DNA of 26,775 nt from a bacterium (GTDB taxonomy: Bacteria > Zixibacteria > MSB-5A5 > GN15 > FEB-12). The position numbers and the translations under genes were made by a program. A model generated the notes under the pieces. The model was not told the origin of the DNA. It saw only the letters and a list, made by a program, of their open reading frames with translations, and ran no database searches. Of this stretch, positions 1 to 25,593 are shown piece after piece (the first letter of the stretch is position 1; every line of letters starts with the position of its first letter). The stretch lies in the NCBI GenBank assembly GCA_030640905.1, contig DAOWIM010000082.1, positions 1-26,775 on the forward strand, written 5' to 3'.

Positions 1-1
1 C

Positions 2-307
2 GTTCCGACGAATAACCGTAGCGTGGAAATTTCTTCCTATCGGCAGCTTGTCCTTGCGATGACCAATCATCACCGGAGAATCAACCAGCAACCGGGCCAA
101 CTGCTGCAACTCCTCACCTGGAAACCGCCCGCCAAAGCTGTTGACTTCGTCCGACGCAATAAACATTGCCCGGATAAAAACATCATCCGCCTTAACCGGA
201 TCAGGGGGAGCAACATTTGTGTTGATCAGCTCAACTAAATTATTGGTGACCCTGGCCTCTTCCGCCTCGGCCAACGCGGCATGGATACGTCCCAAACTGG
301 CTTCCAT
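2..307 (-). CDS. Phage prohead (capsid maturation) protease-like protein, N-terminal 102 aa, runs off the left edge; absent from the ORF track
   Basis: ATG at 307 with GGAG upstream; frame open to the edge: MEASLGRIHAALAEAEEARVTNNLVELINTNVAPPDPVKADDVFIRAMFIASDEVNSFGGRFPGEELQQLARLLVDSPVMIGHRKDKLPIGRNFHATVIRRN. The D-x-N..RF..L..L..P-V-x-x-GH....PIGR pattern resembles caudoviral prohead proteases, and the gene lies downstream of portal and terminase. Confidence 0.7.
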   Translation of the reverse strand, partial: MEASLGRIHAALAEAEEARVTNNLVELINTNVAPPDPVKADDVFIRAMFIASDEVNSFGGRFPGEELQQLARLLVDSPVMIGHRKDKLPIGRNFHATVIRRN

Positions 308-337
308 CTGCACTCCGAATTCTGTTTTTACTAAGTC

Positions 338-356
338 CTGTTCAACTTTTGAACAG
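338..356. promoter_or_regulatory. Perfect inverted repeat CTGTTCAA-ctt-TTGAACAG (TGT-N11-ACA); candidate enhancer-binding-protein site
   Basis: Read directly from the sequence. It lies about 135-150 nt upstream of a sigma-54 promoter and a near-identical copy occurs at 3721-3739. Confidence 0.55.
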
Positions 357-488
357 CAGCAGGTTGCCACCATTTTTGTGCACAGCTTTGCCGAGCTAAG
401 GCCTTGTAGTCAAAGCACTACTTTATGGACAAGCCCCTATCCCCTTGTCAGGTCGATCTTTAGGGGTGCGGTAATGTTAAATAAACGG

Positions 489-504
489 GGGCACTCGATT
501 TGCT
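489..504 (+). promoter_or_regulatory. Sigma-54 (RpoN) -24/-12 promoter
   Basis: GGGCAC-TCGAT-TTGCT: GG at 490-491, GC at 502-503, exact GG-N10-GC spacing, 43 nt upstream of a PEP-CTERM start. PEP-CTERM genes are known to be sigma-54 associated. Confidence 0.8.
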
Positions 505-546
505 TTCAAGAACATAGATAATTTAATTAACAGATGGAGTAGAGCC

Positions 547-909
547 ATGGTCGTTTACAGAAACAGCAGCAAAGCACCGTTGAAATGGCTGGTAGCCATG
601 ATCATTTTTCTGCTGGCCATGACTGTTACCTGGGCAGACGTTGAAGGGATAGAAGTCAGCTCTGGTCGCCACGCGCCTGTTTATCAAGAACAGTCCACAA
701 TGCCGATTCAGCCTGGCAGCAACACCAGTTGGCTGGAAAGCAGTTCCGACACCTATCATGTCACCTCGTTACCACCGACTTATTCAGATTTTCAGCAAAG
801 CCCAACCAACGGTGACCCGACGGCGGTACCGGAACCTGGCACAATGCTGCTACTTGGTAGCGGCCTGACTGCGATCTACCTGGCAAGAAAGAAAAACATC
901 TCGTCCTAA
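547..909 (+). CDS. Small PEP-CTERM sorting-domain protein (120 aa, Ser/Thr/Pro/Gln-rich)
   Basis: N-terminal signal peptide (KWLVAMIIFLLAMTVTWA); C-terminal VPEPGTMLLLGSGLTAIYLARKK (PEP, TM helix, basic tail); GGAG upstream of the ATG. Confidence 0.92.
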   Translation: MVVYRNSSKAPLKWLVAMIIFLLAMTVTWADVEGIEVSSGRHAPVYQEQSTMPIQPGSNTSWLESSSDTYHVTSLPPTYSDFQQSPTNGDPTAVPEPGTMLLLGSGLTAIYLARKKNISS

Positions 910-940
910 TAATATCCCAACTCTCCCCACCTTAACTCGC

Positions 941-978
941 ACGCCTTTCGAGCTCCCACCTTGAAAGGCGTTTCTTTT
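941..978 (+). terminator. Rho-independent terminator after the first PEP-CTERM gene
   Basis: Stem ACGCCTTTCGAG / CTTGAAAGGCGT (one G-U pair), 7-nt loop, followed by TTCTTTT. Confidence 0.6.
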
Positions 979-984
979 GGGCCG

Positions 985-2325
985 TCAGGCCCGCCCAACT
1001 CGGGGAGCAGGCTGAGCCACTCTTTCCTTGCGTAGCGGCCAGATTGCCAGGGCCAGCGCCATGAGGGCGTCGCACTCATTGTTACTGTCCCAACGCGCCT
1101 GTCGTAACTCATCCTCCAGCGACCACACCCGGCCCGGCCCATCGGGTAGTTCCCAGCGATCATACGCAATCTCTCCCCTGGCATGGAACAGCTCAACATT
1201 GGTAAGAAGTTCGGCCTTGGTCCGAGGCGAAAAAATCACCGCTTCGGGATTGTACTCCTTCAATTGCTCCACGACCACATCGCCAAGACCGGTAGCATCG
1301 ACAATCAACTGACCGGGGTACTCATTCTGCCGCCGCTTGATATGTTCAATCACAACCGCCCAGTCAAACAGACGAAACCGCTCCAGCGCAATAACCCGCG
1401 CCATACCATCGACAAGCTCAACAGTAATCCCGACCGTCGCCGTCTTCTTCCGCGCCAGGTCCCACCCGCTCAAATAGACCGGAGGATGCAGAATGTCTCC
1501 CCGAGGCGAACCTGCCCCGGCCATTGCCGCCAGCGCTGCGTCAACATACTCACCCCTGAGAATTTCACCGCCGGAATCAACAAACTGCCCCATGACGTTC
1601 TGCTGCGCCCGTGACTCCGAGAAATACCGCAACCGATCTTCGAGAAACTCCTGTGAGATGAAACAGTTTTCCCGACTGTCGCCCGACTGATAATAACCAT
1701 CGCGTTTGCCATCAATGATATCGCGGGCCCGGCGATAGAACCAGTTCTTGCCATTCGGCGTTGAGACCAGATCGAGCTTCCCTTCGCGGTCGGCCAGTCG
1801 CATCTGGATAACATTCTCAACAACATATTCCGGATCGGCCTCAAACGCGACTTCATCAAAAATGAAAAGATCGTAGTCGTTACCCAGCAGGTACTCGCCA
1901 CGGTTCTGCGTCGAGCGGGCTTCCACCCGACTACCGTTACCAAATTCAAGACGTGGGTAGGGCGTTCGCGTGGACGACACCACCAGACATTCCAGAAAAT
2001 CGGAGCCATGGATCATGCCGATCACATGAGAATAGATTATCTCGGCTTGATCCTGCGTAATTGACGCGGTGACAATTCGATACTTTCCAACTCGATCATA
2101 CTTGAGGGGACGCACCCTGAATAACGCATGGTGAATGATCTTGATCGCCGAAACAAATGATTTCCCCCAGCGATTGCCGGTAACCAGAACATTCTCCTGC
2201 CGGTGCGAATTGCTCAACCATTCCTCCTGACCGGGATGAAGGTCGATCTTGAGAACAGCCGATGCAAAATATCCCCAATCGGTAATCGCACGACGCCAGT
2301 CAATCGCGTCGTAGAACGTCTTTAT
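985..2325 (-). CDS. terL: Phage terminase large subunit (ATPase + RNase H-like nuclease); about 446 aa from a probable ATA start at 2325 (ORF track starts at TTG 2217)
   Basis: Q motif LHPGQ 17 residues before Walker A GNRWGKS; Walker B LFIFDE; coupling motif VSTP; nuclease acidic residues in WDLARK, IVDATG and CDALMALALA. Confidence 0.93.
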   Translation of the reverse strand: MKTFYDAIDWRRAITDWGYFASAVLKIDLHPGQEEWLSNSHRQENVLVTGNRWGKSFVSAIKIIHHALFRVRPLKYDRVGKYRIVTASITQDQAEIIYSHVIGMIHGSDFLECLVVSSTRTPYPRLEFGNGSRVEARSTQNRGEYLLGNDYDLFIFDEVAFEADPEYVVENVIQMRLADREGKLDLVSTPNGKNWFYRRARDIIDGKRDGYYQSGDSRENCFISQEFLEDRLRYFSESRAQQNVMGQFVDSGGEILRGEYVDAALAAMAGAGSPRGDILHPPVYLSGWDLARKKTATVGITVELVDGMARVIALERFRLFDWAVVIEHIKRRQNEYPGQLIVDATGLGDVVVEQLKEYNPEAVIFSPRTKAELLTNVELFHARGEIAYDRWELPDGPGRVWSLEDELRQARWDSNNECDALMALALAIWPLRKERVAQPAPRVGRA

Positions 2326-3602
2326 ATCAGCCCCTGCGCCTTCTGTCGAGCCGCCTCCTCATCTATCAAACCGGCCTGATAGAGCTTGAGAATATTGTCA
2401 ACACGGCTGTTTTCGATAGTCATCTTTTCGGTCGCTTCATAGGCAAAAGTATTGTCAAAAACAAAACGGCACTTGCAATCGGACCCGGCCAGCGCCAACT
2501 CGACATTGCCGATCCACTCCATAAATCGAGCCACCTCAGCCTGAATCGACTTCACCTGCCGCATGACGACATCGAACTTAAAACTCGACCATGTGTTGGT
2601 TGCACCATAGGAGTAACCGAGCAGGAACGGAGCCAGGTTGGTCCCGGCGCAGATGTCCTCAATCATCGCCCGATGATTCAGAAACCACGCATTGGAGCCT
2701 CCTCTACTAGTCTTCGGCCCAACGTGTTCTATTTCAACATTGTTCCACGTAACCGGGTTGTCATCGACCTCGCACGACTTTATCATCGAAACGGTCGAAT
2801 CGAAATAGCCGTTGATACGGTCAACATACGCCTGATCACTCTCGCCGGACATCCGCTCCGGCGGCGTCACCTTCACATGCAACCGGTGGAACCCGGCGTT
2901 GTGGTTAGCCCGACGCATATCATCGACCAACTGCTGCTCAATGTAGGAAACAAACGGAACGGCCTGCAACACTGACCGACCAAGCGGCTGCGAAGGCCCC
3001 CCGCTCAGTGGGATGGAATAGAAATCGGTACGACTCAAATCTATCCGGGCAGAGTCTGACTCAAGAAACAGTCGCGGCTTGCCGCTGCTGTTGTCGCAGA
3101 GCAAGTCGGCCGAGTCGACCGGAACAAAACGGTCAACACCCGACCCGTCCCGATGAACCGTCAGGAACCCCCCAAAGATGCCATCCCGAAAAAGTATGGT
3201 GAAAAGATCGGGAAGAAAAGCTGCAACCCCTTGCCGGTTACCATCGCCGGCACCGGTGGCATAGACACGATCAGCCAGTCTCTTCAGCCGAGCGTCCGCC
3301 CTCTCAGTTGACACTCCTTTTTCGTCTCCAACAATCCGGTACTCCCCCGGCGCCGCAGCCAGCCGGCCCCATGTCCAGATACACGAACTTACAACCGGGA
3401 TATTATCGCTGAGAAACCGATAAAGCTGAACCCGGTATCGCCCGGAGAGCACATCGGTGTTGGCAACCCGAAGCATTGAGCCAATCTTCCCAGCCGACCG
3501 GAACCCGCTCCGTTTCTCATCAACCCTGATCATATCAATCCGATTCGTCGGCTGCTGCGCAGTTGCCGCCGGACTTTCGGGAGTCAATTGCTTGCTTCTC
3601 AT
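2322..3602 (-). CDS. Phage portal protein (about 426 aa; ATG 3602 preferred over 3641)
   Basis: Portal-like segments LYRFLSDNIPVVSSCIWTWGRL, PLGRSVLQAVPF and IEDICAGTNLAPFLLG, and C-terminal LYQAGLIDEEAAR. Size fits a portal, it is adjacent to TerL, and AGGCAGG lies upstream of ATG 3602. Confidence 0.8.
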   Translation of the reverse strand: MRSKQLTPESPAATAQQPTNRIDMIRVDEKRSGFRSAGKIGSMLRVANTDVLSGRYRVQLYRFLSDNIPVVSSCIWTWGRLAAAPGEYRIVGDEKGVSTERADARLKRLADRVYATGAGDGNRQGVAAFLPDLFTILFRDGIFGGFLTVHRDGSGVDRFVPVDSADLLCDNSSGKPRLFLESDSARIDLSRTDFYSIPLSGGPSQPLGRSVLQAVPFVSYIEQQLVDDMRRANHNAGFHRLHVKVTPPERMSGESDQAYVDRINGYFDSTVSMIKSCEVDDNPVTWNNVEIEHVGPKTSRGGSNAWFLNHRAMIEDICAGTNLAPFLLGYSYGATNTWSSFKFDVVMRQVKSIQAEVARFMEWIGNVELALAGSDCKCRFVFDNTFAYEATEKMTIENSRVDNILKLYQAGLIDEEAARQKAQGLI

Positions 3603-3720
3603 CAATACCTGCCTTTTTTGACTCTCCGCACCGCTACGCATTCAACCCCAATATTAATCACTTTTTGCTCTCTCGCATTGTGCACATAGGCGACTTTCGC
3701 TACGCACCAGATCACACCAT

Positions 3721-3843: not shown

Positions 3844-3859
3844 CGGCACCGGGATTGCT
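3844..3859 (+). promoter_or_regulatory. Sigma-54 (RpoN) -24/-12 promoter
   Basis: CGGCAC-CGGGA-TTGCT: GG at 3845-3846, GC at 3857-3858, exact GG-N10-GC spacing upstream of the second PEP-CTERM gene. Confidence 0.8.
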
Positions 3860-4855: not shown

Positions 4856-4900
4856 CTCTTGCGTTAGCTTTTGGATAAAACCACCGATATCAATGGATAT

Positions 4901-6379
4901 ATGATGCTCAAACTATTAAGTGCAATTCTGGCGGCCCTGATGCTCGTTTCGGCCTGTTCCGATAACGAAGCAGTCCGCCTCCGTTATCAGGCCGAGAAAG
5001 ACCTTTACCAACTCGACCGAAAGATGCGCGACATCCGGCAGGCCGGCGAGATCGACTCAACTGTAATCCGACAACTCGCCGCCGATTACCGACAGCTATC
5101 CGATTTCTGTGCGGAAGCAACCGTATCGATCGATGCCGAACAGTATCCGGTAGAGAACCGCGAGTTATCACATCTGACTTTTCGATCGTTCATTCGTCTG
5201 TCGCAGCTCTACTTCAACACGCGCCAGTACGACAGTTGCACTTCCCAGTTGGGACGTCTGCTCTCAACAGTGAAGTTGGTCGGCCATGAGCAGGCGGTGG
5301 CACGGATGAACCTCGGACAGGCTCTTCAGGCTGGCGGTAACCTTGACAGTGCCGCAGCTGTTTTTGATCGCATCACCGATGATTTCTACCCGCCGATTGA
5401 TGACACCGGTGCCGTGCTTCTGGACCTGTTCAATCTCCCGCTGCACACCTATCGCCTCGCTGGCTACGTCTTTGACTCAACGGCGCGGGCCGAGCGATAT
5501 TCCAAAACCGAAAGTTACTACCGAAAGGTGGTAGAAGATTATCCCGAAACGAAACTTGAGATGACCGGCCGCAGCAACCTGGCTCGTCTCTATGAGAATA
5601 ACGGCGAGTGGGAAAAGACTATCGCGGAGTTGGAAGCACTCAACAAAATGACCGAGACGGATAATAAAATCATCAGAGTGAAAATTGCAGATATCCTGAC
5701 AACCCGTCTCAAAAAATACGACACAGCGCTCGCCCTGTATGGTCACATTCTGGAAACCATACCGCAACAGGACAGTCTCGACTACGCTCTGATTCTATTC
5801 AAAACGGCAATCGTAAAAATGGAACAGAAAAAATACACCGAGGCCAGAGAACTCGTTGTTGATGTCCGCCAGAAATACGCCGTCTTTTTTGCCCGCACAC
5901 CTCTGGCTCAACTTACCATAGCGCGCTCATTTGAATTTGAAGGCAACTGGAACAGGGCAGAGGTAGAATACGGTTTCTTGATCGAACAGTATGCCACCTC
6001 CGATGAAGCTCTGGCTTCATTTCTGCACATTGCCGATTACTATCGCGCGAAGAACCGCCCCACTCTGGTAGACAAGTGGCTCAACGATGCCGAACAGCAC
6101 TACGAACAAATGGAGATTCGAGGCGCTGGATCGCAACTGGGAGCAAAGGCTCTCATCTTCAAGGCCGATCTATACGAACGAAAGGAACAGCCAGAAAAAT
6201 CGGCTCGCGTTCTAATGGAACTCTTTGACCGATATCCACAGACCGAACCGGGTCGGCGAGGCCTGTTGAGCGCCGCCAGAATATTCCGTGATCGGCTGGG
6301 AGATCAAGCGACTGCCGATTCACTGGTCCAGGTATTGAAAACGAGCCTGACTCAACCCATCGGCAAATTTGAAATTTAG
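4901..6379 (+). CDS. Tetratricopeptide-repeat lipoprotein
   Basis: Signal peptide with lipobox (MMLKLLSAILAALMLVSAC); many TPR-like helical pairs (e.g. ARMNLGQALQAGGNLDSAAAVFDRI, LARLYENNGEWEKTIAELEAL). Confidence 0.85.
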   Translation: MMLKLLSAILAALMLVSACSDNEAVRLRYQAEKDLYQLDRKMRDIRQAGEIDSTVIRQLAADYRQLSDFCAEATVSIDAEQYPVENRELSHLTFRSFIRLSQLYFNTRQYDSCTSQLGRLLSTVKLVGHEQAVARMNLGQALQAGGNLDSAAAVFDRITDDFYPPIDDTGAVLLDLFNLPLHTYRLAGYVFDSTARAERYSKTESYYRKVVEDYPETKLEMTGRSNLARLYENNGEWEKTIAELEALNKMTETDNKIIRVKIADILTTRLKKYDTALALYGHILETIPQQDSLDYALILFKTAIVKMEQKKYTEARELVVDVRQKYAVFFARTPLAQLTIARSFEFEGNWNRAEVEYGFLIEQYATSDEALASFLHIADYYRAKNRPTLVDKWLNDAEQHYEQMEIRGAGSQLGAKALIFKADLYERKEQPEKSARVLMELFDRYPQTEPGRRGLLSAARIFRDRLGDQATADSLVQVLKTSLTQPIGKFEI

Positions 6380-6445
6380 GACCTTTTCAACCACTGGGAT
6401 GTATGAAGACGAGAAGAAATCTTTATGGCACATATTGGAGGAACA

Positions 6446-7015
6446 ATGAAAACAACCGCTAAATTTGGATTAGCCCTGCTGATCCTGTTACCGAATATCT
6501 GCTTGGCTCAACAAGACACATTCGGCAAGCTGGATACTATGTATGCCGACGTAGCCAGAGTTGATTCATCAACCTGGTCAATCACTATCAGCTACGACAA
6601 CGACGAGGATGTCGAAGGGCTGACCGTTGCCCTGAAAATGACCGCCGGAATGACCAAGATAGTAGCTGATTCGGCAATATTCACCGGGGGACGAGTGGAG
6701 CATTTCAGTTACAAGGGATTCCGGCCCGACTCAGCTATTCAGTGCGTAACTCTCGGAATGGTGGCCAACCTGGGACCGATCGACAAATATCTCGCAGCAG
6801 GGACTGGTCGCCTATGCACAATTTTTGTCTCTTCGCTGGGGGATCAGGCTGTTGAAAAACTGATGATCGACACGACCACGACGCAACCAGCCAACACACT
6901 GATGGCGATTGCCTATCCCTACCAGCACCAGGGAGACAAGATCGACACGATTCCGATAGATCGTCGCCGCGAACTTGAAATCCATCCAGCCTGGGTCGTC
7001 AAATACGTTGAGTAA
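6446..7015 (+). CDS. Secreted beta-sandwich protein, cohesin-like
   Basis: GGAGG at 6438-6442 before the ATG; signal peptide; beta-rich pattern (ITISYDNDEDVEGLTVAL...DSAIFTGGRV...GTGRLCTIF) resembling cohesin-like domains. Family assignment is by eye. Confidence 0.55.
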   Translation: MKTTAKFGLALLILLPNICLAQQDTFGKLDTMYADVARVDSSTWSITISYDNDEDVEGLTVALKMTAGMTKIVADSAIFTGGRVEHFSYKGFRPDSAIQCVTLGMVANLGPIDKYLAAGTGRLCTIFVSSLGDQAVEKLMIDTTTTQPANTLMAIAYPYQHQGDKIDTIPIDRRRELEIHPAWVVKYVE

Positions 7016-7028
7016 CAATCTGGACTCC

Positions 7029-7058
7029 AAAAAAAACCCGCCACCGGCGGGTTTTTTT
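7029..7058. terminator. Bidirectional Rho-independent terminator between convergent genes
   Basis: A8-CCCGCC-acc-GGCGGG-T7. Confidence 0.92.
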
Positions 7059-7086
7059 GTGCCCAAGAAATTGTCCAACACCCTAC

Positions 7087-8325
7087 CTACTCATTATCAA
7101 AGCGCTTCCGGGACGGTCGCGGAATTACAACAACCCTCTCCCCTCTCTTGATGTACTCTTCCAACTGGTCCCTTTGCTCATCAGTCAGGCGTCCGGTGAG
7201 ATAGACCTTCTTCATAAACTCGTTGCCGTTTAGTTCGAAAAACAGGTCCATCCCTTCCCAACCGTTAACCAATGCGTTCAGATCAGCATGCGCCTTTTGG
7301 TCTGCCGTCCGGGTAACTAGTTTCTCTTCCCGACTAATCCTGACATCAACCCGCCCCGACTTTGCAAAGAATTTCGACATATTCAACTCGCGGGCCAATT
7401 CAACCAGGTCCTCCTTGAGCGATCGTTTCTCAGCTTCGAACTCTTTGATTTTCAAGTGAACACCGATCATCGCCTCAGCCTTCTCAGCCGCTCTTTCCTC
7501 CGGCGTGCTGCCATCACTATCCTCTTTTTCCAACACCTCCATCGCAAAACGATGCCGCCGCGCCGGACAAAGCTCCTCGTAGTTACAGTAGGCGCAGAGA
7601 GCGCTCTCAGTCGGCGGGAAATTGTCGTTGCGTTCCGCCGCAACTATTGCCGCAAGCGTCAGACGAACCTGCTCGGTCAACTCATCAAGTTCATCAGGCG
7701 ACATCCGACAGGCAACTTCTTCATCCTGCCGCAAGTAGATCTGTACTAAATCGATGTCGTGAAACTGCGGATAGGCATCCTGTACCGCCAACTGATACAA
7801 ACCCATTTGAAAACGAAAATCCAAGTCGTGCGTTTGCAGCATGTGCTGGCCGGTCTTGTAATCACAAATCTCAAGCGACCCATCGTCCTTCTTGGAAAGA
7901 CGATCAATCTTGGCACTAATAACAAACGGCGTTTCTGGCAGAGTAAACTTAAGCGACAACTCCGAGCCGAGGATAACTCCATGCTTGAACGGTTTGTACT
8001 TGTGATAATGGCGGACCAACACCTCACGCCCGATGCGGATAAAGTCGTCTACCGTGTAGTGCTCCGATGGCAGGACCAGTGACTCCGGATCAACCTTGTC
8101 CCATTCTTTCTGGTAGAATTCAACGACATCATTCTCCGGCCAGACCACACCATCGGCACCCATCTTGTACAGGTGTCTCAGAGCTTTGTGAACAGCCGTA
8201 CCCAGAAACGCCTGAGGGCTCACTTTCCGACGCACAACCGGCTTCTCAATATACTGGAATTTAAACTGACGCGGGCAATTGCGATATGTGCCCAGCGAAC
8301 TGTGACTAAACGATTTCGGTAACAT
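7087..8325 (-). CDS. PD-(D/E)XK nuclease, RecB/AddB/Cas4-like, with 4-Cys Fe-S motif and C-terminal helical extension
   Basis: FSHSSLGTYRNCPRQF, GTAVHKAL, KIDRL...ICDYKTG, QMGLY, CAYCNYEELCP; SD AAGGGGGG upstream. Confidence 0.9.
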   Translation of the reverse strand: MLPKSFSHSSLGTYRNCPRQFKFQYIEKPVVRRKVSPQAFLGTAVHKALRHLYKMGADGVVWPENDVVEFYQKEWDKVDPESLVLPSEHYTVDDFIRIGREVLVRHYHKYKPFKHGVILGSELSLKFTLPETPFVISAKIDRLSKKDDGSLEICDYKTGQHMLQTHDLDFRFQMGLYQLAVQDAYPQFHDIDLVQIYLRQDEEVACRMSPDELDELTEQVRLTLAAIVAAERNDNFPPTESALCAYCNYEELCPARRHRFAMEVLEKEDSDGSTPEERAAEKAEAMIGVHLKIKEFEAEKRSLKEDLVELARELNMSKFFAKSGRVDVRISREEKLVTRTADQKAHADLNALVNGWEGMDLFFELNGNEFMKKVYLTGRLTDEQRDQLEEYIKRGERVVVIPRPSRKRFDNE

Positions 8326-8385
8326 CTTCCCCCCTTAGCAACGACAGGTTAACATCGGTAAGACGACAGCAGATCGCACAGCCGA

Positions 8386-9390
8386 CTATTTCTTTAGATA
8401 GTGATTAATAAACTCCCTGACAAAACCGAAACCCAGCCCAAAATGAATGGTCGGGTATACCAACGGCCCAAACAGGATACACCCCATCTGTCCTTTGGCC
8501 AATCCCAGGAAGAGCGAAAAGAGCAAGACGAGCAGCAAGTACAGAGCAACCAGATTCTTAAAAAAACCAAACACCGCCGCCGAGAGAAAAGAGAGCACCA
8601 GCAGAACGGCAAATACCGCCAGAGCTATTCCCGCCAACCATTGAATCGGCGATGCCAGATTATGCTTTCGGGCAAACCGAAAACGACCCGTTCCGTACCG
8701 TACCATTTGCTTCCATAACCCGCCCAGCGTCGCACGAGGATAATAATAGACACGCAACTGCGGAGACAACACAGCCTTCAGACCAGCCTGCCTGACACGG
8801 TAATTGAAATCAACATCCTCGCAGACATCAAACTTCTCATCGAAATAACCAACCTGATCAAAAACAGAACGGTCGTATATCGCGCCTGACGATGTCGGAT
8901 CAACTTCGCCCTCAAAATCCGAATAGATGTCAGACGACGGGTTATGGCCGATAGCCGAAGCTCGGCACAGCGCCACCGCACTCTGAAATTCAGAAATATC
9001 GGGTGGCATCATCGGTTGCGCCCGGCACAGACATTTCGCGCCCGTTGATTCAAACAGATCAATCGTAGCCCGCAGCAGATTCTTGCCGGGGATATGAGAG
9101 TGACCATCAATCACCAGAACGTACCGCGCCGTTGAGTTTCGCACGGCAATGTTGCGCCCGGACGAGGACAACCGTGCCGGATTGTCCAGCACCTTCAGAG
9201 ATCCAAAACGGTCTTTGTATGACTCCGCTATCTCTCTGGTATGATCAGTGGAACCACCATCGGCCACCACTACTTCGACCCGAGACATCGGGAAATCCTG
9301 CATATATATCTGATCGAGAGTGCGGCCGATATATTTCTCCTCGTTGAGAACCGGCATCACCACCGCAATATCAAATTTGGAGTCAGTCAT
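8386..9390 (-). CDS. Glycosyltransferase family 2 (ExoA-like) with C-terminal TM helices
   Basis: VVMPVLNEEKYI, VADGGSTD, IDGHS (DxH), VCEDVDFNYR; hydrophobic C-terminus. Confidence 0.92.
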   Translation of the reverse strand: MTDSKFDIAVVMPVLNEEKYIGRTLDQIYMQDFPMSRVEVVVADGGSTDHTREIAESYKDRFGSLKVLDNPARLSSSGRNIAVRNSTARYVLVIDGHSHIPGKNLLRATIDLFESTGAKCLCRAQPMMPPDISEFQSAVALCRASAIGHNPSSDIYSDFEGEVDPTSSGAIYDRSVFDQVGYFDEKFDVCEDVDFNYRVRQAGLKAVLSPQLRVYYYPRATLGGLWKQMVRYGTGRFRFARKHNLASPIQWLAGIALAVFAVLLVLSFLSAAVFGFFKNLVALYLLLVLLFSLFLGLAKGQMGCILFGPLVYPTIHFGLGFGFVREFINHYLKK

Positions 9391-9587
9391 ATTGATCGAT
9401 TCAGCTTATCCTATTTACGCCGGAACAGCAACCAACACACCGCCAACCGGCCAGCTCTTTCGCCATTTCTTACCGATTTGATGATACCGTTGCAAGAGCT
9501 CGACCTCAATATAAAAAATCAGGTGCAACCGAAGTTGTGACACCTCTGAAAACACACATAACGAAATGAAAAATGACGTGGGTACAG

Positions 9588-10721
9588 TTAGCGAAGTTCG
9601 CGGTACAGTGTTTGCCAATCATTGCAAACGCCGGAAGCTGCGTGCCTCTCAGCCGTTGCCAGCGCCGCCTCAGAGAGAGACGATACCAGTTCGGGAGTTT
9701 CGATCAGTTCGATAATCCGATCAGCTATTCCCGAAAAATCGTTCACCCGCGCCAGCAAACCGTTCTGTCGATCCTTGATAATTTCCCCGACACCACCGGT
9801 ATCGGTAGCAACAATCGGCAAACCGGCCGATAGCGCCCGCCATATCGCCGCAGGGATAGAGTCGTGCACCGAGGCGCTCAAAAACAGATCGGCTCGCATG
9901 ATCAGACGGTCAATCTCCGATGAACAAGCTGCCGTTTCAAAAGTGATCCCAAGAATCTTCTCACGGCTCACCAGATTCTGCAAGTATTCCCGACGGGTAC
10001 CATCGCCCGCAATAACCATCTCCGCCCGCGGAAATTTCTGCTTAACCAGTTTAAAAGCCCGTATCGCCGCCACATATCCCGCCTGTCGCTCCAGGGGACG
10101 AACCATCACGATACGAGGCTGCAACTGCAAAACCGGCTTCGGCTCGGCTATCCTCCCGGCAATACCTCCAGGCATAACCTCAGAGTCGAACCGATATCCA
10201 GACAAAACCGTTCTGAGGTAATAACTGGAAACCACAACCCTATCACAGAGACGGAGGATCGGTCGGTAAATCTCGTGTGAACGCTCAAGGTCCAGCTCGG
10301 CCATACTATCGGAATAGCTCAGGATAACCTTTTTGCCAAAAAACTTTGCGAGAATAATCGCCGGGGCAGCGTGCAGCAGAAACAAACGGCCCGAAAAATG
10401 AAAGACATGCACAATATCGTGCCGGGGAATTGCTGTCAGCAAAGTCCTAATTCTGGCCATTTTCTCACCAAAAGCTGACAAAAAACCAATCGGGCGGGGT
10501 TGGTGCCTCAAACTGGTAACAGCATCACACGTAGATTGAGCAGCCGATGGCAAATTGGCCGAAAACTGTTGAAATTGATCAGCTTCAGCTGGATCGGGGA
10601 TTACCCGTGGGGCCAGCAGCAAAACCCGAACAGACTCCCGCGCCAATTCCGCGCCGGGCGTCACTTCAGCCGTTAGTACTCTAATGCTCGATACCGTCAA
10701 ATCAGTCTCCGAAATGCTCAC
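9588..10721 (-). CDS. Glycosyltransferase family 4 (GT-B fold), possibly degenerate; start uncertain
   Basis: HDIVHVF, IAGDG, ADLFLSAS, GLPIVATDTGGVGEII, NGLL. Confidence 0.85.
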   Translation of the reverse strand: MSISETDLTVSSIRVLTAEVTPGAELARESVRVLLLAPRVIPDPAEADQFQQFSANLPSAAQSTCDAVTSLRHQPRPIGFLSAFGEKMARIRTLLTAIPRHDIVHVFHFSGRLFLLHAAPAIILAKFFGKKVILSYSDSMAELDLERSHEIYRPILRLCDRVVVSSYYLRTVLSGYRFDSEVMPGGIAGRIAEPKPVLQLQPRIVMVRPLERQAGYVAAIRAFKLVKQKFPRAEMVIAGDGTRREYLQNLVSREKILGITFETAACSSEIDRLIMRADLFLSASVHDSIPAAIWRALSAGLPIVATDTGGVGEIIKDRQNGLLARVNDFSGIADRIIELIETPELVSSLSEAALATAERHAASGVCNDWQTLYRELR

Positions 10722-10858
10722 GTCAGCCGAACCACCATTTGTCCAGCTATTTCCTTTTACTCCTGAGCACCCGATTAGTTTGGACTATTCGGCAGGCAGA
10801 TCCCTGTCAAAAACAAATTTATATTGCGCCCTGCGCCCATATTATTGTTCTTTCCTTG

Positions 10859-12589
10859 ATGGATCAACAGGTTATCGGCGGTTACAAGATCCTCAAGCCT
10901 ATCGGCGCAGGAGGCATGGCCAAAGTTTATCTGGCTGTCCACGAAGATGTCCCCAATTTGCAGGTAATTCTCAAGGTCCTCACCGACAGCCGCCTGGTCG
11001 AGCGTTTCAAACAGGAAGCCGACAAACTGGCCCTGCTGGACGGCAACCCCAACATCTGCCGGATAAAACACTTCTTCCATCACGGTGACAATATCGTCAT
11101 CGCCATGGAGTACATCGACGGAATCACGCTGGACGACCGGATCAAAGATGACGGCAAAGTTGAGACAGGTGAGACTCTGAAGATAGTGCTTGATGTCCTC
11201 GGCGTCATCGAATTTGCTCATCAGAAGGGGATATATCACCGCGATATCAAACCAAGCAACATAATGATCGATAAGCATGGTACCGTCAAGGTCATCGACT
11301 TTGGTATCGCCAAGGCAGAATCGGACCCAAACCTCACTCAGGCCGGATCGGCTTGCGGTACTCCCGCCTATATGGCCCCGGAGCAGTTCACTCCCTCCGA
11401 AGACACCAATTATGCCGCGATTGACATCTATGCGGTCGGTGTGACGCTCTACCGCGCTCTCACCGGTGAACTCCCTTTCAAGGGTGACAACGAGTTTGCT
11501 ATTCGCGACGCCAAACTTTTCACCGACCCGCCCCGTGCCCGAGAACTGAACCCACAAATTGATCGGAAGCTGGACGACCTTATCATGCGCTGTATGAAAA
11601 AAGACCCAGTTGACCGATTCTCAACTGCAAGCGAGTTAATAGCCGCTCTGCATGCTGTTTCTCCTAAGATGGCCGCCAGCGAGACACCGACACGGACGAT
11701 ATCTCAAACGCCTCAGAAAAAATTCCCAATCAAAATTGTCGCCGGTGCTGCCGGTGTTGTTGCCGCAGCGGTGATCGGTTTCATCCTGATTTCCGGTAGC
11801 GAAAACGTCCCGCTCGTCCCGCAATTGACCCAGCCGACCGATGGCTCCACGCTTGAGGTACCATCACCAACCCTCAGCTGGACCGGTGTGACCAAAGATG
11901 ATGAGACGTACACTCTGGAGTATGCCAACAACCCCGACTTTTTCATCTCGGAGATCGTAACCGACCTGACAACCGCCAGCCATGCCATTGGCGAGGGACT
12001 CGAAAGCGATAGCTACTGGTGGCGTGTCCAGACTGTAAACTCAGAGGGCGATTCCAGCGGTTACGGACCACCCTTCACTTTCACAGTCGAGTTGCCGACT
12101 CCGCTCACACCGCAGGGAACAATTGAGATTGCCGTTGATCCCGATGGTGATATCTATCTCGGCGATGAACTAATCGCGCAAAACAGCTCAGGCACATCGG
12201 TTACCGTCGATACTGGCACCTACTCGGTCCGGGTCCGCAACAATCGAGCGACCAGAAAAGAAATGAACCGCGAAGTATATGTAGCCACCGACACAAACAT
12301 AACTTTGAACTACCGATTCAACTTCCCCGCCGCAACAAAACCAGCCGAGCCGAAACCGGCCCCAACATTAGGTGAAGTCAAAGTTGGATCCAAGCCAATC
12401 AACGGCGCGGATATTTATATCGATGGTGAGCTTCAGGACCGCAAAACCCCCAGCGCTTTTCAGGTAACGCCGGGACGACACGTCATCAGGGGAATATTGA
12501 ACTTCGACGGTGCCTTGCGTATAAGAATAGACACTGTCAGCGTGATTGCGGGAGATTCGCACCGTATCATTCTCGATTTTGATAAATAG
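10859..12589 (+). CDS. Membrane-anchored Hanks-type Ser/Thr protein kinase with periplasmic Ig/FN3-like and PEGA-like domains (ATG 10859 preferred over 10739)
   Basis: IGAGGMAKVY, HRDIKPSN, DFG, GTPAYMAPE, DIYAVG; TM IVAGAAGVVAAAVIGFILI; PTLSW...YWWRVQ segment; PEGA-like GADIYIDG...KTP...VTPGRH. Confidence 0.93.
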   Translation: MDQQVIGGYKILKPIGAGGMAKVYLAVHEDVPNLQVILKVLTDSRLVERFKQEADKLALLDGNPNICRIKHFFHHGDNIVIAMEYIDGITLDDRIKDDGKVETGETLKIVLDVLGVIEFAHQKGIYHRDIKPSNIMIDKHGTVKVIDFGIAKAESDPNLTQAGSACGTPAYMAPEQFTPSEDTNYAAIDIYAVGVTLYRALTGELPFKGDNEFAIRDAKLFTDPPRARELNPQIDRKLDDLIMRCMKKDPVDRFSTASELIAALHAVSPKMAASETPTRTISQTPQKKFPIKIVAGAAGVVAAAVIGFILISGSENVPLVPQLTQPTDGSTLEVPSPTLSWTGVTKDDETYTLEYANNPDFFISEIVTDLTTASHAIGEGLESDSYWWRVQTVNSEGDSSGYGPPFTFTVELPTPLTPQGTIEIAVDPDGDIYLGDELIAQNSSGTSVTVDTGTYSVRVRNNRATRKEMNREVYVATDTNITLNYRFNFPAATKPAEPKPAPTLGEVKVGSKPINGADIYIDGELQDRKTPSAFQVTPGRHVIRGILNFDGALRIRIDTVSVIAGDSHRIILDFDK

Positions 12590-12664
12590 TGGCCGCTGGC
12601 CCAGTTTTTATGTAAAATAGATAGATACGTTGTACTTTGATTCTTCAAAATGAAAGGAATAAAG

Positions 12665-13714
12665 ATGAATAAGCTAACCTGCAGATGTTCTCGTCTGCTC
12701 ATGACGCTTGTCCTCGCCGCCGTTGTGCTGACCGCAGGCGCCGGTGTCCACGCCAATGAGGGGACAGTAGCCGACAAGCTGGCGGAAGCCCTCAATTACT
12801 ACAGCGAGCTGGAATTCGAAAAGAGCATCCAGATCGCCGAGGGTCTACTCGGTCGCGACGATCTCACCTCCCGTGACAGTATCGCCATTTTCGAAACCCT
12901 CAGTATTGTCACCTACGCCAAGGGTGAGGGCTTCCTGAAAAAGGCGGTCAACTACCTTGAGCAGATATCAACTGTCGGCCCTTGTGTCAGCCGCCTGCCG
13001 CAGGAGATGTGGCCACAGGAACTGAGAGACAAATGGTACAATATCCTCAAAGGCAAGAATCAACTGACCTGCGACGAAGACGGCCCCGATGGAATCAAAA
13101 CAATCGCCATCCTTGAGTTCGACAACTACTCGGTCGGCGAATATCAGGAAAAGCTGGGCGCACTCGGTAAAGGCCTGGCCGATTTCTTTGAACATGATTT
13201 TTCCAAGCTCAGCGACCTGCGCGTAGTCGAGCGTGACAAGATCGACTTTATCTTAAAAGAGATCGCAATGGTCCAAGCCGGTAAGGTTGACAAGGCAACA
13301 GCGGTCAAAGTCGGCAAGATTGTCGGCGCCCAACTGATGGTCTTCGGCAGCATCACCCAGCTTGACAGCAAGAACGCCCGCATGGTTGTTCGTGTGGTCA
13401 ATGTCGAAACCTCGGAGATCATGGCCTCGGTTGACAAAGAAGGCAAACCGGAATTCTCCAAGATGGAGAAAGAACTGGTTAAGGAAATCGCCGAATTGCT
13501 CGATCTGGAACTCAGCGATGACATCATGAAGGCGATTGATCAGGGCGGAACGACATCACTGGACGCCACCTCCTACTATTCGCTCGGACTGGAATACATG
13601 GATCGTTACGATTACAAGAATGCTTATGCCAGCTTCAAGAAAGCATATGAAATGGACTCAAGCTTTGTTGAAGCCAAGCGCAAAATGGATGTTTACCGCC
13701 CGCTGGTAGGATAG
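12665..13714 (+). CDS. Secreted CsgG/HfaB-family domain protein with TPR-like helices
   Basis: Signal peptide; IAILEFDN...LRVVERDKIDFILKEI...VGKIVGAQLMVFGSI is the CsgG/FlgO/HfaB pattern; AAAGGA upstream of ATG 12665. Confidence 0.85.
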   Translation: MNKLTCRCSRLLMTLVLAAVVLTAGAGVHANEGTVADKLAEALNYYSELEFEKSIQIAEGLLGRDDLTSRDSIAIFETLSIVTYAKGEGFLKKAVNYLEQISTVGPCVSRLPQEMWPQELRDKWYNILKGKNQLTCDEDGPDGIKTIAILEFDNYSVGEYQEKLGALGKGLADFFEHDFSKLSDLRVVERDKIDFILKEIAMVQAGKVDKATAVKVGKIVGAQLMVFGSITQLDSKNARMVVRVVNVETSEIMASVDKEGKPEFSKMEKELVKEIAELLDLELSDDIMKAIDQGGTTSLDATSYYSLGLEYMDRYDYKNAYASFKKAYEMDSSFVEAKRKMDVYRPLVG

Positions 13715-17708: not shown

Positions 17709-18239
17709 CTAATTGTCCTGCAGAATAACCGTCTCGGCGATTGTAGCCGTATAGACCTTGTACGGTGAGATTTCTCCCTGTCCGCCCTTGATAAACAAAC
17801 CGGCAATAAACAGGTACGAAAGAATCTTCTTCCCCTTACCTTCGGCGGTAATCGTACCGGTAAGCTTGATCGGTCCGTTCTCGGCAGTGTGGAAATCGCC
17901 CTTGGGCGTCAACTCGCCGAATTCGAGTACTATCTTTCCCGGTTTACCGGCCTTTCGGGATTTGACCGATTCGGTAACGGTAGCCGTTCCCTCGGCTCCC
18001 TTTTCGATGATCGTCTTGCCACCAATCATGACGTCCTCATCGACATAAAACAGAAGCGGTACACCGGTTCCGAGAACACCCGATGAAATCTTGATGCTGG
18101 TCGGGAACTTGACCTTTATTTCCGTGCCTTCCGGCAATTGCACCTTGGCAGCCTGAGCAGTAGCAACAAAAGAGACAAGTGCTACTATCACTGCTAAGAG
18201 CACAAGTACGTATCGCCGATTAGTAATAAATCTGCTCAT
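17709..18239 (-). CDS. Small secreted protein with TrbI/VirB10-like beta pattern; last gene of the T6SS operon
   Basis: Signal peptide ending AQA; LPEGTEIKV...VDEDVMIGGKTIIEKGAEG.ATV...GKPGKIVL resembles the 'IPxGT...I.KG' VirB10-like family; starts 35 nt after the upstream stop. Confidence 0.55.
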   Translation of the reverse strand: MSRFITNRRYVLVLLAVIVALVSFVATAQAAKVQLPEGTEIKVKFPTSIKISSGVLGTGVPLLFYVDEDVMIGGKTIIEKGAEGTATVTESVKSRKAGKPGKIVLEFGELTPKGDFHTAENGPIKLTGTITAEGKGKKILSYLFIAGLFIKGGQGEISPYKVYTATIAETVILQDN

Positions 18240-18274
18240 TCCCTACTCCATTTCTCAATACGAGTCAGCGTTCC

Positions 18275-20482: not shown

Positions 20483-20516
20483 ATATCCTCAATTAAGAAC
20501 AGCATCCTGCTGCCGG

Positions 20517-21440
20517 TCACTTTCCCCCTCCACTGCGGAGGTTGCTGGCTTTTTCCTGAAATTCCGTCAATACTTTGTTCGTTTTTCCACTCCACCAACT
20601 CGGCACACCAATCGCCACACCGAGGAAGATGATTATCACAATCGTATAGACAAAGTAGGCCAGCGAACGTTGTGTACTCAGCAATCTAAAATAACTAAAA
20701 TTGGAAAAGGCGCCCCTGACCTTGGTGCCAAGCTCGCCAAACCATGAGGAGAGTTTAGACCAGAAAGTGGTCGTGGCAAAATATCCCCAATCCCTCAAGA
20801 AATACTCAACAAGCTTACTGCCACCGCCCAGCCGTCCAAAAACATCAACCCGCTGCAAATGAAATTCCAGCGAATTGCGGTCGTCAATGAGGTCTTTACC
20901 AAGAGCCAGCCGACGGCGCTGCAACTGGAGCATCTTGCCGGCGGTGGAAAAAGCGTCGAAAGCTTCCGGCGACAGGTCAGCATTAACACGGGTGCCGAAC
21001 TTGTTCATATAGGCGCCAACTTCTCCCAGGAAAAACGAGCTCAACTCGAAATTGTTCTTCAGGCTGCCTTCCTCGAAAAGCTGCTTGACAAGGTGACCCT
21101 CGAAAAACGCTACATCCTGTTTGGCCGGTCGAAGATTCCGACAGTATGAATATGCCTGATTGGAACGACCATCAGTATCCGCTTCCGACTCAAACCGCGT
21201 GATCAGCACCTGAACCGTAACCTGTCGAAGATCGGACGATGTCAGCGGCGAGAGCTTGATCTTGTCCAGAAAGTAGTAGTCAATCTCAACTGCCTGGTCA
21301 CGGTCACTTCGCAGAGTCTGGAAAACATTGATGATCCCGGTGTAAGTCTGAAGAAACGCTTCTGTCTTGAACTGAGCGTAGTCCGTCTCGTACGTCTCTA
21401 TATATTTGAAGAGGTCATCAATGTAGGATTTCATCGCCAC
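20517..21440 (-). CDS. Hypothetical inner-membrane protein with TssL/DotU-like topology
   Basis: Helical soluble N-terminal region with a single C-terminal TM (YFVYTIVIIIFLGVAIGVPSWW); sits between tssK and the TssM-like gene. No DotU sequence motif recognised. Confidence 0.55.
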   Translation of the reverse strand: MAMKSYIDDLFKYIETYETDYAQFKTEAFLQTYTGIINVFQTLRSDRDQAVEIDYYFLDKIKLSPLTSSDLRQVTVQVLITRFESEADTDGRSNQAYSYCRNLRPAKQDVAFFEGHLVKQLFEEGSLKNNFELSSFFLGEVGAYMNKFGTRVNADLSPEAFDAFSTAGKMLQLQRRRLALGKDLIDDRNSLEFHLQRVDVFGRLGGGSKLVEYFLRDWGYFATTTFWSKLSSWFGELGTKVRGAFSNFSYFRLLSTQRSLAYFVYTIVIIIFLGVAIGVPSWWSGKTNKVLTEFQEKASNLRSGGGK

Positions 21441-21463
21441 AACAATTACACCATAGCCTTCCG

Positions 21464-22915: not shown

Positions 22916-22997
22916 TTTGCCTCTAACAGAAGGAACTCGCCAAGAATCTATGACTGTCGTGTCCCAAAGTCAAGAACAACTCCTTTCACTATCGCAC

Positions 22998-25573: not shown

Positions 25574-25593
25574 TTCGGTGTCCGTTCCGCCTG

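Follow-up and report, generated by a model that had tools for sequence, protein, structure and literature searches.

The window, i.e. the whole 26.8-kb stretch of DNA analysed here (26,775 nucleotides), is an entire contig whose minus strand carries a portal gene, a large terminase gene (TerL) and the start of a head protease gene (Table 1). The coordinates confirm the order portal, TerL, protease reported in an earlier note on this DNA, and its claim that no small terminase (TerS), integrase or phage regulator lies upstream of the portal also held. Two points of layout had not been weighed there: a small PEP-CTERM open reading frame lies on the opposite strand between TerL and protease, convergent with the former and divergent from the latter, and position 1 is the end of the contig, not of the module.

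Table 1. Features of the head-gene locus and its surroundings, by position in the window.
Feature	Position	Strand	Remarks
Head (prohead) serine protease, first 102 codons	2..307	-	Cut by contig end
TTGTGCACA (palindromic core TGTGCACA)	376..384		69-77 nt upstream of protease ATG
Sigma-54-type -24/-12 promoter (GGCAC-N5-TTGC)	490..503	+	44 nt before small PEP-CTERM gene
Small PEP-CTERM protein, 120 aa	547..909	+	Pfam PEP-CTERM 1.5e-06, above cut-off
Hairpin between convergent TerL and PEP-CTERM genes	941..971		12-nt arms, 92% complementary, 7-nt loop
TerL	985..2325	-	446 codons if the start is ATA 2325-2323, overlapping the portal stop (ATAA)
Portal protein	2322..3641	-	439-aa ORF; PHROG matches, AF2 and Foldseek, 17-ortholog alignment
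TTGTGCACA, second copy	3678..3686		Upstream of portal gene
Sigma-54-type -24/-12 promoter, second	3845..3858	+	40 nt before 278-aa PEP-CTERM gene
PEP-CTERM protein, 278 aa	3898..4734	+	Pfam PEP-CTERM 7.3e-06; divergent from portal
TPR protein (502 aa) and secreted 196-aa protein	4871..7015	+	Conserved left-hand neighbours of the module

At the sequence level the portal family is divergent: the protein matched three PHROG portal families (best 3.8e-13), with no Pfam match at E 0.01 and no profile match to PDB sequences. An AlphaFold2 model of the window's own portal (pLDDT 69.8) met the fold criterion of wing, stem, clip and crown, and in a Foldseek comparison of this model with the PDB the top 50 matches were all portals (best E 1.0e-10, probability 1.00), including those of phage 812, HFTV1, lambda, HK97, G20c and T4. 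Forty-two columns were invariant in an alignment of 17 orthologs. The second methionine, at 3602, may be the true start.

TerL matched Pfam Terminase_6N above cut-off (9.9e-08) and phrog_2 (1.4e-28), and a profile of 18 orthologs covered both domains when compared with the PDB, matching the P74-26/G20c nuclease domains (5tge, 7.3e-10) and the ATPase domain (4zni, 4.1e-08), while the best TerL of an isolate phage shared only 29% identity. The motifs, previously described as intact, are so: the Q motif (HPGQ..WL) is present, Walker A (TGNRWGKS), Walker B (DYD..FDE) and the coupling motif (STPNG.NW) are invariant in 18 orthologs from 9 families, and the three acidic nuclease motifs (GWDLARK, DATGLGD and CDA) are likewise invariant in 18 orthologs. 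The full TerL frame of the window has no canonical start codon; the Q motif lies upstream of the first ATG, GTG or TTG, and a start at the first canonical codon (TTG 2217, giving 985-2217) would remove it. Because no stop interrupts the frame up to 2358 and the upstream part is represented in orthologs, we take 985-2325, with ATA in the start position, to be the real gene. An ATAA or ATAG portal-TerL junction was found in at least 12 of ~70 orthologs, with ATGA or GTGA in others.

The protease gene, whose ATG at 307-305 is preceded by GGAG, resumes on another contig of the same MAG (G000 C301:5588-6748, minus strand), with residues 1-100 of a 479-aa ortholog matching C125:5-307 and residues 116-471 matching C301:5597-6748. 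It matches phrog_16951, and no Pfam S78 match was obtained even at E 10. A His and a Ser invariant in 11-12 protease orthologs align to H65 and S114 of HK97 gp4, which we take to be the catalytic residues of that enzyme, on a weak hhalign score (E 0.016). In a model of a full-length ortholog, the N-domain (pLDDT only 45-82) matched a BFVD 'prohead serine protease' (E 1.5e-06, 24% identity), and no solved protease was among the top matches of the model in the PDB. The C-terminal half, of ~270 aa, is predicted to adopt DNA-ligase nucleotidyltransferase-like and LigD 3'-phosphoesterase-like folds, the ligase-like domain being without the conserved motif I lysine, and the protein also carries a Cys4-type zinc-ribbon-like insertion (CxxC...CxH).

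Leftward extension, proposed in the earlier note as a check, succeeded: C301 carries the remainder of the protease together with the capsid gene and at least five more conserved genes. Among its products are the major capsid protein and decoration-like, BNR-propeller and adaptor-like proteins, and no integrase, att site or TerS was found on it. The whole set spans ~13-14 kb and comprises portal, TerL, serine protease, decoration-like protein, HK97-fold major capsid protein, BNR-propeller protein, adaptor-like protein and several small or fibre-like proteins, of which the adaptor and fibre assignments derive from language-model and structure look-alikes and are leads only. What had been described as a fragmented module is mostly an assembly break. 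In a few genomes a part is lost or broken: families f11 and f12 are without TerL, as is the complete genome G029, which retains the capsid gene, and in CP070674.1 the capsid gene is cut after ~190 codons.

Within the cluster we found no integrase, replication, lysogeny, TerS, tube, sheath, tape-measure or baseplate genes. The analysis covered three full loci, whose gene lists included 10-kb flanks, and a comparison of 19 loci: within 10 kb on either side of the three full loci there were no integrase, att sites, repressor or replication genes, and integrase, TerS and tail Pfams were absent from the precomputed gene lists. A search for the TerS Pfams PF03592 and PF05119 in 5 complete genomes returned nothing adjoining the cluster and one unlinked match only. 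The set fits the first criterion for a viriform, the possession of virion genes of phage origin in the absence of genes for replication, integration or lysogeny.

TerL was found in 261 of the 285 species genomes of Zixibacteria, at roughly one copy each, amounting to 190 of the 198 of high quality and 123 of 130 genera; a distant TerL query recovered 262, and the capsid gene was found in 255. A motif scan of 185,579 species genomes returned 258 relatives, approximately the number inside Zixibacteria. Gene order and flanking host genes are common to 15 of 19 loci, spanning 7 families. In the TerL tree all 17 sampled GTDB families were monophyletic, requiring 16 family label changes (the minimum) against a mean of 53 when labels were shuffled. 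TerL dN/dS was 0.03-0.10 (0.081 at dS 0.30, 0.096 at dS 0.48 and 0.049 at dS 1.4), and the core head genes are better conserved than the flanking host genes. Single-copy syntenic orthologs, a congruent phylogeny and dN/dS well below 1 had been named in the earlier note as tests of domestication, and all three were satisfied; neither of the cases that it would have taken as refutation, a patchily distributed complete prophage or relaxed selection, appeared. The second viriform criterion, vertical inheritance with the host clade under purifying selection, is also met. In some genomes the locus is split and both halves are retained: in G035 a distance of 1.4 Mb separates TerL from the capsid gene, and in G064 and G170 the two are unlinked. 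A functioning prophage could not withstand such a separation.

An ordinary cryptic or decaying prophage, or temperate phages repeatedly integrating at one conserved site, with fragmentation as decay, would suit the phage origin of every recognisable gene, the listing of one such cluster as viral in IMG/VR and the loss or truncation seen in a few genomes. However, this is scarcely credible for a set found in 190 of 198 high-quality genomes across a whole phylum and in monophyletic families, with dN/dS below 0.1, invariant catalytic motifs, head genes that evolve more slowly than their neighbours, and no integration, replication or lysogeny genes. Distribution, phylogeny, selection and missing genes already contradict the prophage reading. 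Domestication of the head genes, as the earlier note had inferred, is strongly supported, although the reasons first given for it, gene order and the absence of TerS, are weak on their own.

The presence of head, packaging and adaptor-like genes without tail genes is also what would be expected of a capsid-forming satellite, or of a tail-less head module that uses the tails of helper phages (like cf-PICIs) and has become fixed in the chromosome. A 55-kb IMG/VR contig on which adaptor-like, TerL and portal homologs lie beside a tailspike gene is in keeping with this, and indicates that tailed relatives exist. We nevertheless regard such an origin as very unlikely, since mobile satellites are patchy whereas this set is phylum-wide, single-copy and syntenic with a host-congruent phylogeny, its halves are unlinked in some lineages, and the loci lack integrase, primase/rep, alpA and TerS beside the head genes.

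The control regions of the two head-gene units share an element. Exact copies of TTGTGCACA occur only twice in the window, upstream of the protease and of the portal, and in orthologs from the same family TTTTGCGCAAAAT-like motifs stand ~75 nt ahead of the start of the protease, making it a candidate operator or promoter element of the head genes. The sigma-54 pattern was likewise observed exactly twice, against 0.25 expected, and both occurrences precede PEP-CTERM ORFs. A PEP-CTERM-like ORF of ~100 aa is found in the same place and on the same strand as the small PEP-CTERM gene in 28 of 50 related loci with full flank; orthologs of the 278-aa protein occupy the same place in f1, f2 and f4 loci, with a relocated copy in f16. 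The hairpin is likely a two-way terminator ending the portal-TerL unit, a function assigned from position only. The TPR and 196-aa genes keep position and orientation in 11-14 of 19 loci; their membership of the module is uncertain, and both diverge faster than the head genes (TPR protein 21-45% identity vs 41-74% for TerL).

This arrangement, in which PEP-CTERM genes with sigma-54 promoters stand back to back with both head-gene units, leaves room for a domesticated capsid with a role other than gene transfer. It might store or export a cargo of DNA or protein, act as a decoy or as an abortive packaging response when phages infect the cell, or form a particle linked to the surface or biofilm and regulated together with the PEP-CTERM proteins. 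Such a role would fit the absence of long-tail or injection machinery, the conservation of BNR/sialidase-like propeller and Ig-like fibre proteins, and the ligase-like and LigD-phosphoesterase-like folds of the protease, which suggest handling or binding of DNA ends in the head. We consider it unlikely: invariant TerL ATPase and nuclease motifs, together with the portal, speak for DNA being packaged in the way usual for phages, no link to known defence systems was seen, and the protease ligase-like domain lacks its motif I lysine.

The set looks like a host-owned virus-like particle system and not a prophage, one that appears to be undescribed; in the collection of papers searched there was no description of this Zixibacteria head-gene system. 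In our judgement it is probably a phage-derived, chromosomal and vertically inherited feature of Zixibacteria (a domesticated 'viriform'), likely producing a DNA-filled particle akin to that of a gene transfer agent (GTA), with particle and transfer inferred. GTA-like function itself is inferred and not shown: there are no observations of a particle, of packaged DNA or of a transcript, RNA or virome runs containing the sequence were not found, and machinery for GTA-like delivery has not been identified in the cluster, which gave no tube, sheath or tape-measure matches.

As a GTA-like system, the host would express two units, portal-TerL and protease-to-capsid, sharing the upstream TGTGCACA-type element. 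In this lineage TerL would probably be made at a low level, by re-initiation at the ATA overlapping the portal stop. The protease would mature a procapsid built on the portal, and TerL, given its invariant ATPase and nuclease motifs, would pump DNA in and cut it by headful, possibly without sequence specificity in the absence of a recognisable TerS. Adaptor-like and fibre-like proteins may then close and decorate the portal vertex. Such a system would most likely yield small particles, short-tailed or tail-less, that are filled with host DNA as those of gene transfer agents are. We further raise, tentatively and as a possibility we would not yet favour, a phylum-wide DNA-packaging capsid system of an origin independent of all described GTAs, with a short tail or none, in which ATA re-initiation sets the portal-TerL stoichiometry, the protease brings pseudo-ligase and phosphoesterase-like DNA-end-binding domains into the head, and shared divergent control regions tie production to sigma-54-driven PEP-CTERM surface proteins, i.e. 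to biofilm or envelope state. If true, this would be the first phylum-wide viriform outside Pseudomonadota. In practical terms, viral-prediction pipelines call these loci prophage or virus (one is in IMG/VR), and they should be masked when lysogeny in Zixibacteria is counted.

Among known systems, the closest solved or isolated TerL proteins are those of the Thermus phages P23-45, P74-26, G20c and Riverbug, with profile matches to both ATPase and nuclease domains, and Thermus phage portals are among the fold matches of the Zixibacteria portal. However, TerL identity is only 25-29%, and these phages are complete, with tails and a TerS, and their genes run TerL-(TerS)-portal. The protease resembles HK97 gp4 (peptidase family S78) in the alignment of its His and Ser to positions 65 and 114 and in the place of its gene between packaging and capsid genes, and differs in having no Pfam S78 match, a zinc-ribbon-like insertion and a ligase/phosphoesterase-like C-terminal half. 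Like cf-PICIs, the Zixibacteria set encodes head, packaging and connector genes without tail genes, whereas cf-PICIs are mobile, patchy and helper-dependent, with integrase, replication genes and TerS, and the Zixibacteria set lacks these genes and is a fixed feature of its phylum. The genes that would mark it as a cf-PICI, namely integrase, alpA, primase/rep and TerS, are absent beside the head genes.

GTAs have been described in few lineages, and how they arose and what benefit they bring has long been puzzling. Those of the RcGTA type in Alphaproteobacteria (Rhodobacter capsulatus, Caulobacter) consist of head and packaging genes of phage origin, with no functions for replication or integration; they are chromosomal, approximately single-copy and vertically inherited across a large clade under purifying selection, their parts need not be linked, and a TerS is missing or difficult to recognise. 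The Zixibacteria set is alike in all these respects. In contrast, there is no detectable sequence relationship between the two, the portal precedes TerL with protease, decoration and capsid genes in a second unit, tube, tape-measure, hub and megatron-like tail genes are lacking, and the host phylum is a different one (FCB group); for the Zixibacteria set, particle production and DNA transfer are only inferred. A second ancient, phylum-wide system, differently built and lacking a long tail, would establish the domestication of phage heads as something that evolution does repeatedly, would offer a natural comparison for identifying what selection keeps such systems, and would suggest a path by which genes are exchanged in a phylum of sediments and cold seeps that is abundant and uncultured.

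The head genes at the left end of C125, the contig that makes up the window, are one part of a longer block. Position 1 is an assembly break and no biological boundary, because the window is the entire contig from a fragmented metagenome-assembled genome (MAG; 346 contigs, 2.48 Mb, 78% completeness, 3.4% contamination), of which it is the longest. Extending leftward, as the earlier note had advised, led to C301 (locus L105; 6,748 bp), a contig of the same MAG that begins ~15 codons past the end of C125, with its genes in the same direction as the C125 head genes, and that holds the rest of the protease, a capsid gene and further module genes (see table). Contigs from other runs aligned to the window were short and of low depth, and none crossed the C125-C301 gap; the public runs containing the window sequence were cold-seep metagenomes, and no RNA-type sequencing runs containing the stretch were found. 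On the longer contigs of relatives, the block goes on to encode a pair of small proteins, one or two fibre-like proteins bearing CarboxypepD_reg/Ig domains and a ~110-aa small protein, and its far end borders a host M1 peptidase gene.

Features of the head-gene block and of its surroundings (coordinates without a prefix are those of C125)
Feature	Location	Strand	Remarks
Protease ORF	2-373	minus	runs off contig end
TTGTGCACA, two copies	376-384; 3678-3686		palindromic core
Predicted sigma-54 type -24/-12 sites	490-503; 3845-3858		GGCAC-N5-TTGC
PEP-CTERM ORF, 120 aa	547-909	plus	PEP-CTERM sorting signal; between TerL and protease
Hairpin	941-971
TerL ORF, 410 aa from first canonical start	985-2217	minus	frame open to 2358
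Portal ORF, 439 aa	2322-3641	minus
PD-(D/E)XK nuclease	7087-8325		PDDEXK_1 3.9e-36; weaker DUF2800 and Cas4 matches
Baseplate-like genes of type VI secretion cluster	17709-26775		VgrG-like OB domain, gp25/TssE, TssF, TssG plus PASTA domain
Rest of protease	C301 (L105):5588-6748		continues C125 gene
Protease, three domains (ortholog)	L004:11988-13427
Two small proteins	C301
Decoration-like 'virion structural protein', 139 aa	C301		phrog_4588
Major capsid protein, 367 aa	C301		phrog_3922 7.8e-61 (ortholog); Pfam Phage_capsid_4 above cut-off
BNR/sialidase-like propeller protein, 470 aa	C301
Adaptor-like protein, 271 aa	C301		nearest named look-alikes are head-tail adaptors (lead only)

The portal, TerL and protease had been named, in that order, from the sequence alone, and PHROG and Pfam matches, orthologs and structure models bear out both identities and order. 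The portal had no match in Pfam, and a profile search of PDB sequences returned nothing usable; it matched three PHROG portal families (best 3.8e-13), and when the window's own protein was modelled with an alignment of 17 orthologs (pLDDT 69.8), each of the 50 best PDB matches by Foldseek was a portal protein (best E 1.0e-10), among them those of phage 812, HFTV1, lambda, HK97, G20c, T4 and P74-26. TerL matched Pfam Terminase_6N and phrog_2 (1.4e-28), and a profile of 18 orthologs matched the solved nuclease and ATPase domains of P74-26 / G20c TerL. Its Walker A, Walker B, coupling motif and three acidic nuclease motifs showed no variation between the window's family and even the most distant ones sampled.

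The only PHROG match to the protease was a family of 'unknown function'; no protease family emerged from Pfam when 12 protease N-domains were scanned with a limit of E 10, PDB sequences yielded no usable profile match and hhalign found no match between the protease profile and the Thermus phage Riverbug protease. Its identity is supported by a His (in VGHRKD.LP) and a Ser (in KECSIGF) that do not vary among eleven orthologs, by hhalign, which aligns the two residues, though weakly (E 0.016), with the catalytic residues 65 and 114 of HK97 gp4, a maturation protease, and by an AF2 model of a 479-aa ortholog that matched a viral 'prohead serine protease' (E 1.5e-06, 24% identity). The true start is the ATG at 307-305, preceded by GGAG, and the N-domain carries a CxxC...CxH zinc-ribbon-like insert. 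In the ortholog, residues 205-362 resemble a DNA-ligase nucleotidyltransferase fold (Z 10.9, 3gde) and residues 366-474 a LigD 3'-phosphoesterase fold (Z 10.6, 3p4h). Since the motif I lysine of the ligase-like domain is not conserved, this C-terminal half, encoded on C301 in our MAG, is probably a binding module and not an enzyme. The ORF is only 244-295 aa in families f16 and f17.

For the conserved N-terminal 36 residues of TerL, which include the Q motif, there is no upstream ATG, GTG or TTG (window 2217-2361). The start position is occupied by ATA at 2325-2323, which shares bases with the portal stop (ATAA); among ~70 orthologs, the exact portal/TerL junction reads ATAA or ATAG in at least 12, and ATGA, GTGA or CTGA in others. 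Contigs from two other runs covered the ATA site with no difference listed. A perfect AGGAGG lies 5 nt ahead of the TTG at 2217, but a start there would remove the Q motif; for a frameshift fusion, no conserved slippery site was seen. We infer, without expression data, that TerL is translated by re-initiation at AUA, and that little TerL is made per portal.

The intergenic regions before the protease and before the portal share one layout, in which a PEP-CTERM gene and a head-gene unit lie back to back. The predicted sigma-54 sites are the only two in the window (0.25 expected) and precede the PEP-CTERM genes by 44 nt and 40 nt. Similarly, the window has exactly two copies of TTGTGCACA, one ahead of the protease and one ahead of the portal, 106 and 159 nt from the predicted promoters; the word may serve the head genes as an operator, the PEP-CTERM promoters as an enhancer site, or both. 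The element before the portal and the protease takes the forms TGTGCACA and TTGCGCAA, and a TTTTGCGCAAAAT-like word lies ~75 nt before the protease start in relatives, even without a PEP-CTERM gene. An exact 9-mer search found no promoter word common to families; all that was seen was a motif of the degenerate TTG(Y)GCA(M)AA type, inside the window's own family. The small PEP-CTERM gene is no accident of this MAG: of 50 related loci, 28 have a like ORF, always convergent with TerL; the hairpin probably terminates both its transcript and that of TerL.

In the block and its 10-kb flanks there was no sign of an integrase, a repressor, replication genes, TerS, or tube, sheath or tape-measure genes. 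Five complete genomes lacked two common TerS Pfam families, save for one unlinked match, and it cannot be ruled out that one of the small proteins is a highly divergent TerS. Profile searches of PDB sequences with the adaptor-like protein (g269) and the propeller protein (g471) gave nothing usable, hhalign of g269 with the HK97 gp6 adaptor found no match, and a complex prediction of portal with g269 scored 0.01 against a mark of 0.32, which speaks neither for nor against binding. At the other end of the contig, genes of a type VI secretion cluster resemble a phage tail baseplate, and these baseplate-like genes (17.7-26.8 kb) were considered as the missing tail; this was rejected, as they belong to a separate secretion system outside the conserved block. 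The PD-(D/E)XK nuclease gene forms an operon with two glycosyltransferases, and its place next to the module is conserved in families f1-f4, with no role in the module assigned.

Orthologs proved to be almost always single-copy and mostly syntenic, as the earlier note had expected of a domesticated element. TerL, almost always single, was present in 261/285 Zixibacteria species genomes (190/198 high-quality genomes, 123/130 genera), a query from a distant family found it in 262/285, and the capsid gene was present in 255/285. Of 19 loci compared, 15, from seven families, have gene order and both flanks in common; in the remaining loci the portal-TerL pair stands by itself. The capsid gene lies 1.4 Mb from portal-TerL in genome G035 and is unlinked in G064 and G170, both genes being kept. 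On one complete Zixibacteria chromosome (L002, CP070674.1, 16571-17149), the capsid gene ends after ~190 codons and unrelated genes follow, reflecting either rearrangement through the gene or local decay; that genome has a second capsid match elsewhere.

The family's two signature peptides, scanned in 185,579 prokaryote species, returned 258 relatives, approximately the number within Zixibacteria. Some TerL homologs carry NCBI titles ('Acidobacteriota', 'Deferrimicrobium' and 'Ignavibacteriales' among them) that initially suggested horizontal transfer; this was rejected, as these contigs, like one titled 'Thermoplasmata archaeon', belong to GTDB Zixibacteria genomes with the same synteny. NCBI names of the MAGs (L106-L185) range over Zixiibacteriota, GN15, Ignavibacteriales, Calditrichota, Deferrimicrobium and 'Thermoplasmata archaeon' within what GTDB treats as one phylum; host-range counts of the module from NCBI organism names would mislead. 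TerL identity drops stepwise with taxonomic distance from either end of the phylum, and the phylogeny is congruent: 70 TerL sequences gave a maximum-likelihood tree in which all 17 sampled GTDB families were monophyletic, family labels changed 16 times, the minimum (shuffled mean 53), and the window's order formed a supported clade. Three rows of family f7 (G025, G026 and G027) were left out, the Walker A pattern having missed their frame. Pairwise TerL dN/dS in unsaturated pairs was well below 1 (0.081, 0.096 and 0.049, at dS 0.30, 0.48 and 1.4, respectively), and the neighbouring genes for the TPR protein, the nuclease and the secreted protein were less conserved than capsid, TerL and portal.

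Phage relatives were distant. No close relative was present in the isolate phage collection (best TerL 29% identical), the capsid was 34-36% identical to those of five uncultured gut phage contigs, and the only close match in IMG/VR was another copy of the Zixibacteria cluster. The nearest true phage seen was a 55-kb viral contig (L099, IMGVR_UViG_3300031920_000406, region 6227-12803) with a tailspike, a g269 homolog (5e-23), a 211-aa ORF, TerL (28% identity) and a portal of the same PHROG (3.8e-35), in that order, so that TerL precedes the portal, unlike in the Zixibacteria block.

These results establish a complete, conserved, host-owned gene set for head assembly and DNA packaging. Domestication, as the earlier note proposed, is very likely: distribution, tree, selection and synteny all agree with the expectations set out there, and neither the patchily distributed prophage nor the relaxed selection that would have refuted it was encountered. 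In the working that we propose, a procapsid would assemble on the portal and be matured by the protease, TerL would fill the head, cutting by headful, and the adaptor-like, propeller and fibre-like proteins would then close and decorate the portal vertex, yielding a DNA-filled particle with a short or absent tail. The most economical function is carriage of host DNA between cells in the manner of a gene transfer agent (GTA), an inference made with no delivery apparatus identified and no expression or particle data; granted domestication, we regard GTA-like transfer as an evenly balanced proposition.

In the paper library searched, nothing linked Zixibacteria with a gene transfer agent, and among the papers listed there on Zixibacteria and terminase, no title or abstract dealt with this system. 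Among known systems, capsid-forming cf-PICIs are similar in content (a head without a tail), but the Zixibacteria module lacks any of their mobility genes. Agents of the RcGTA type are alike in working without being relatives: both have lost selfish functions, descend vertically, are under purifying selection and tolerate unlinking, whereas the Zixibacteria module differs in its gene order, in having no long-tail genes and in its host phylum.
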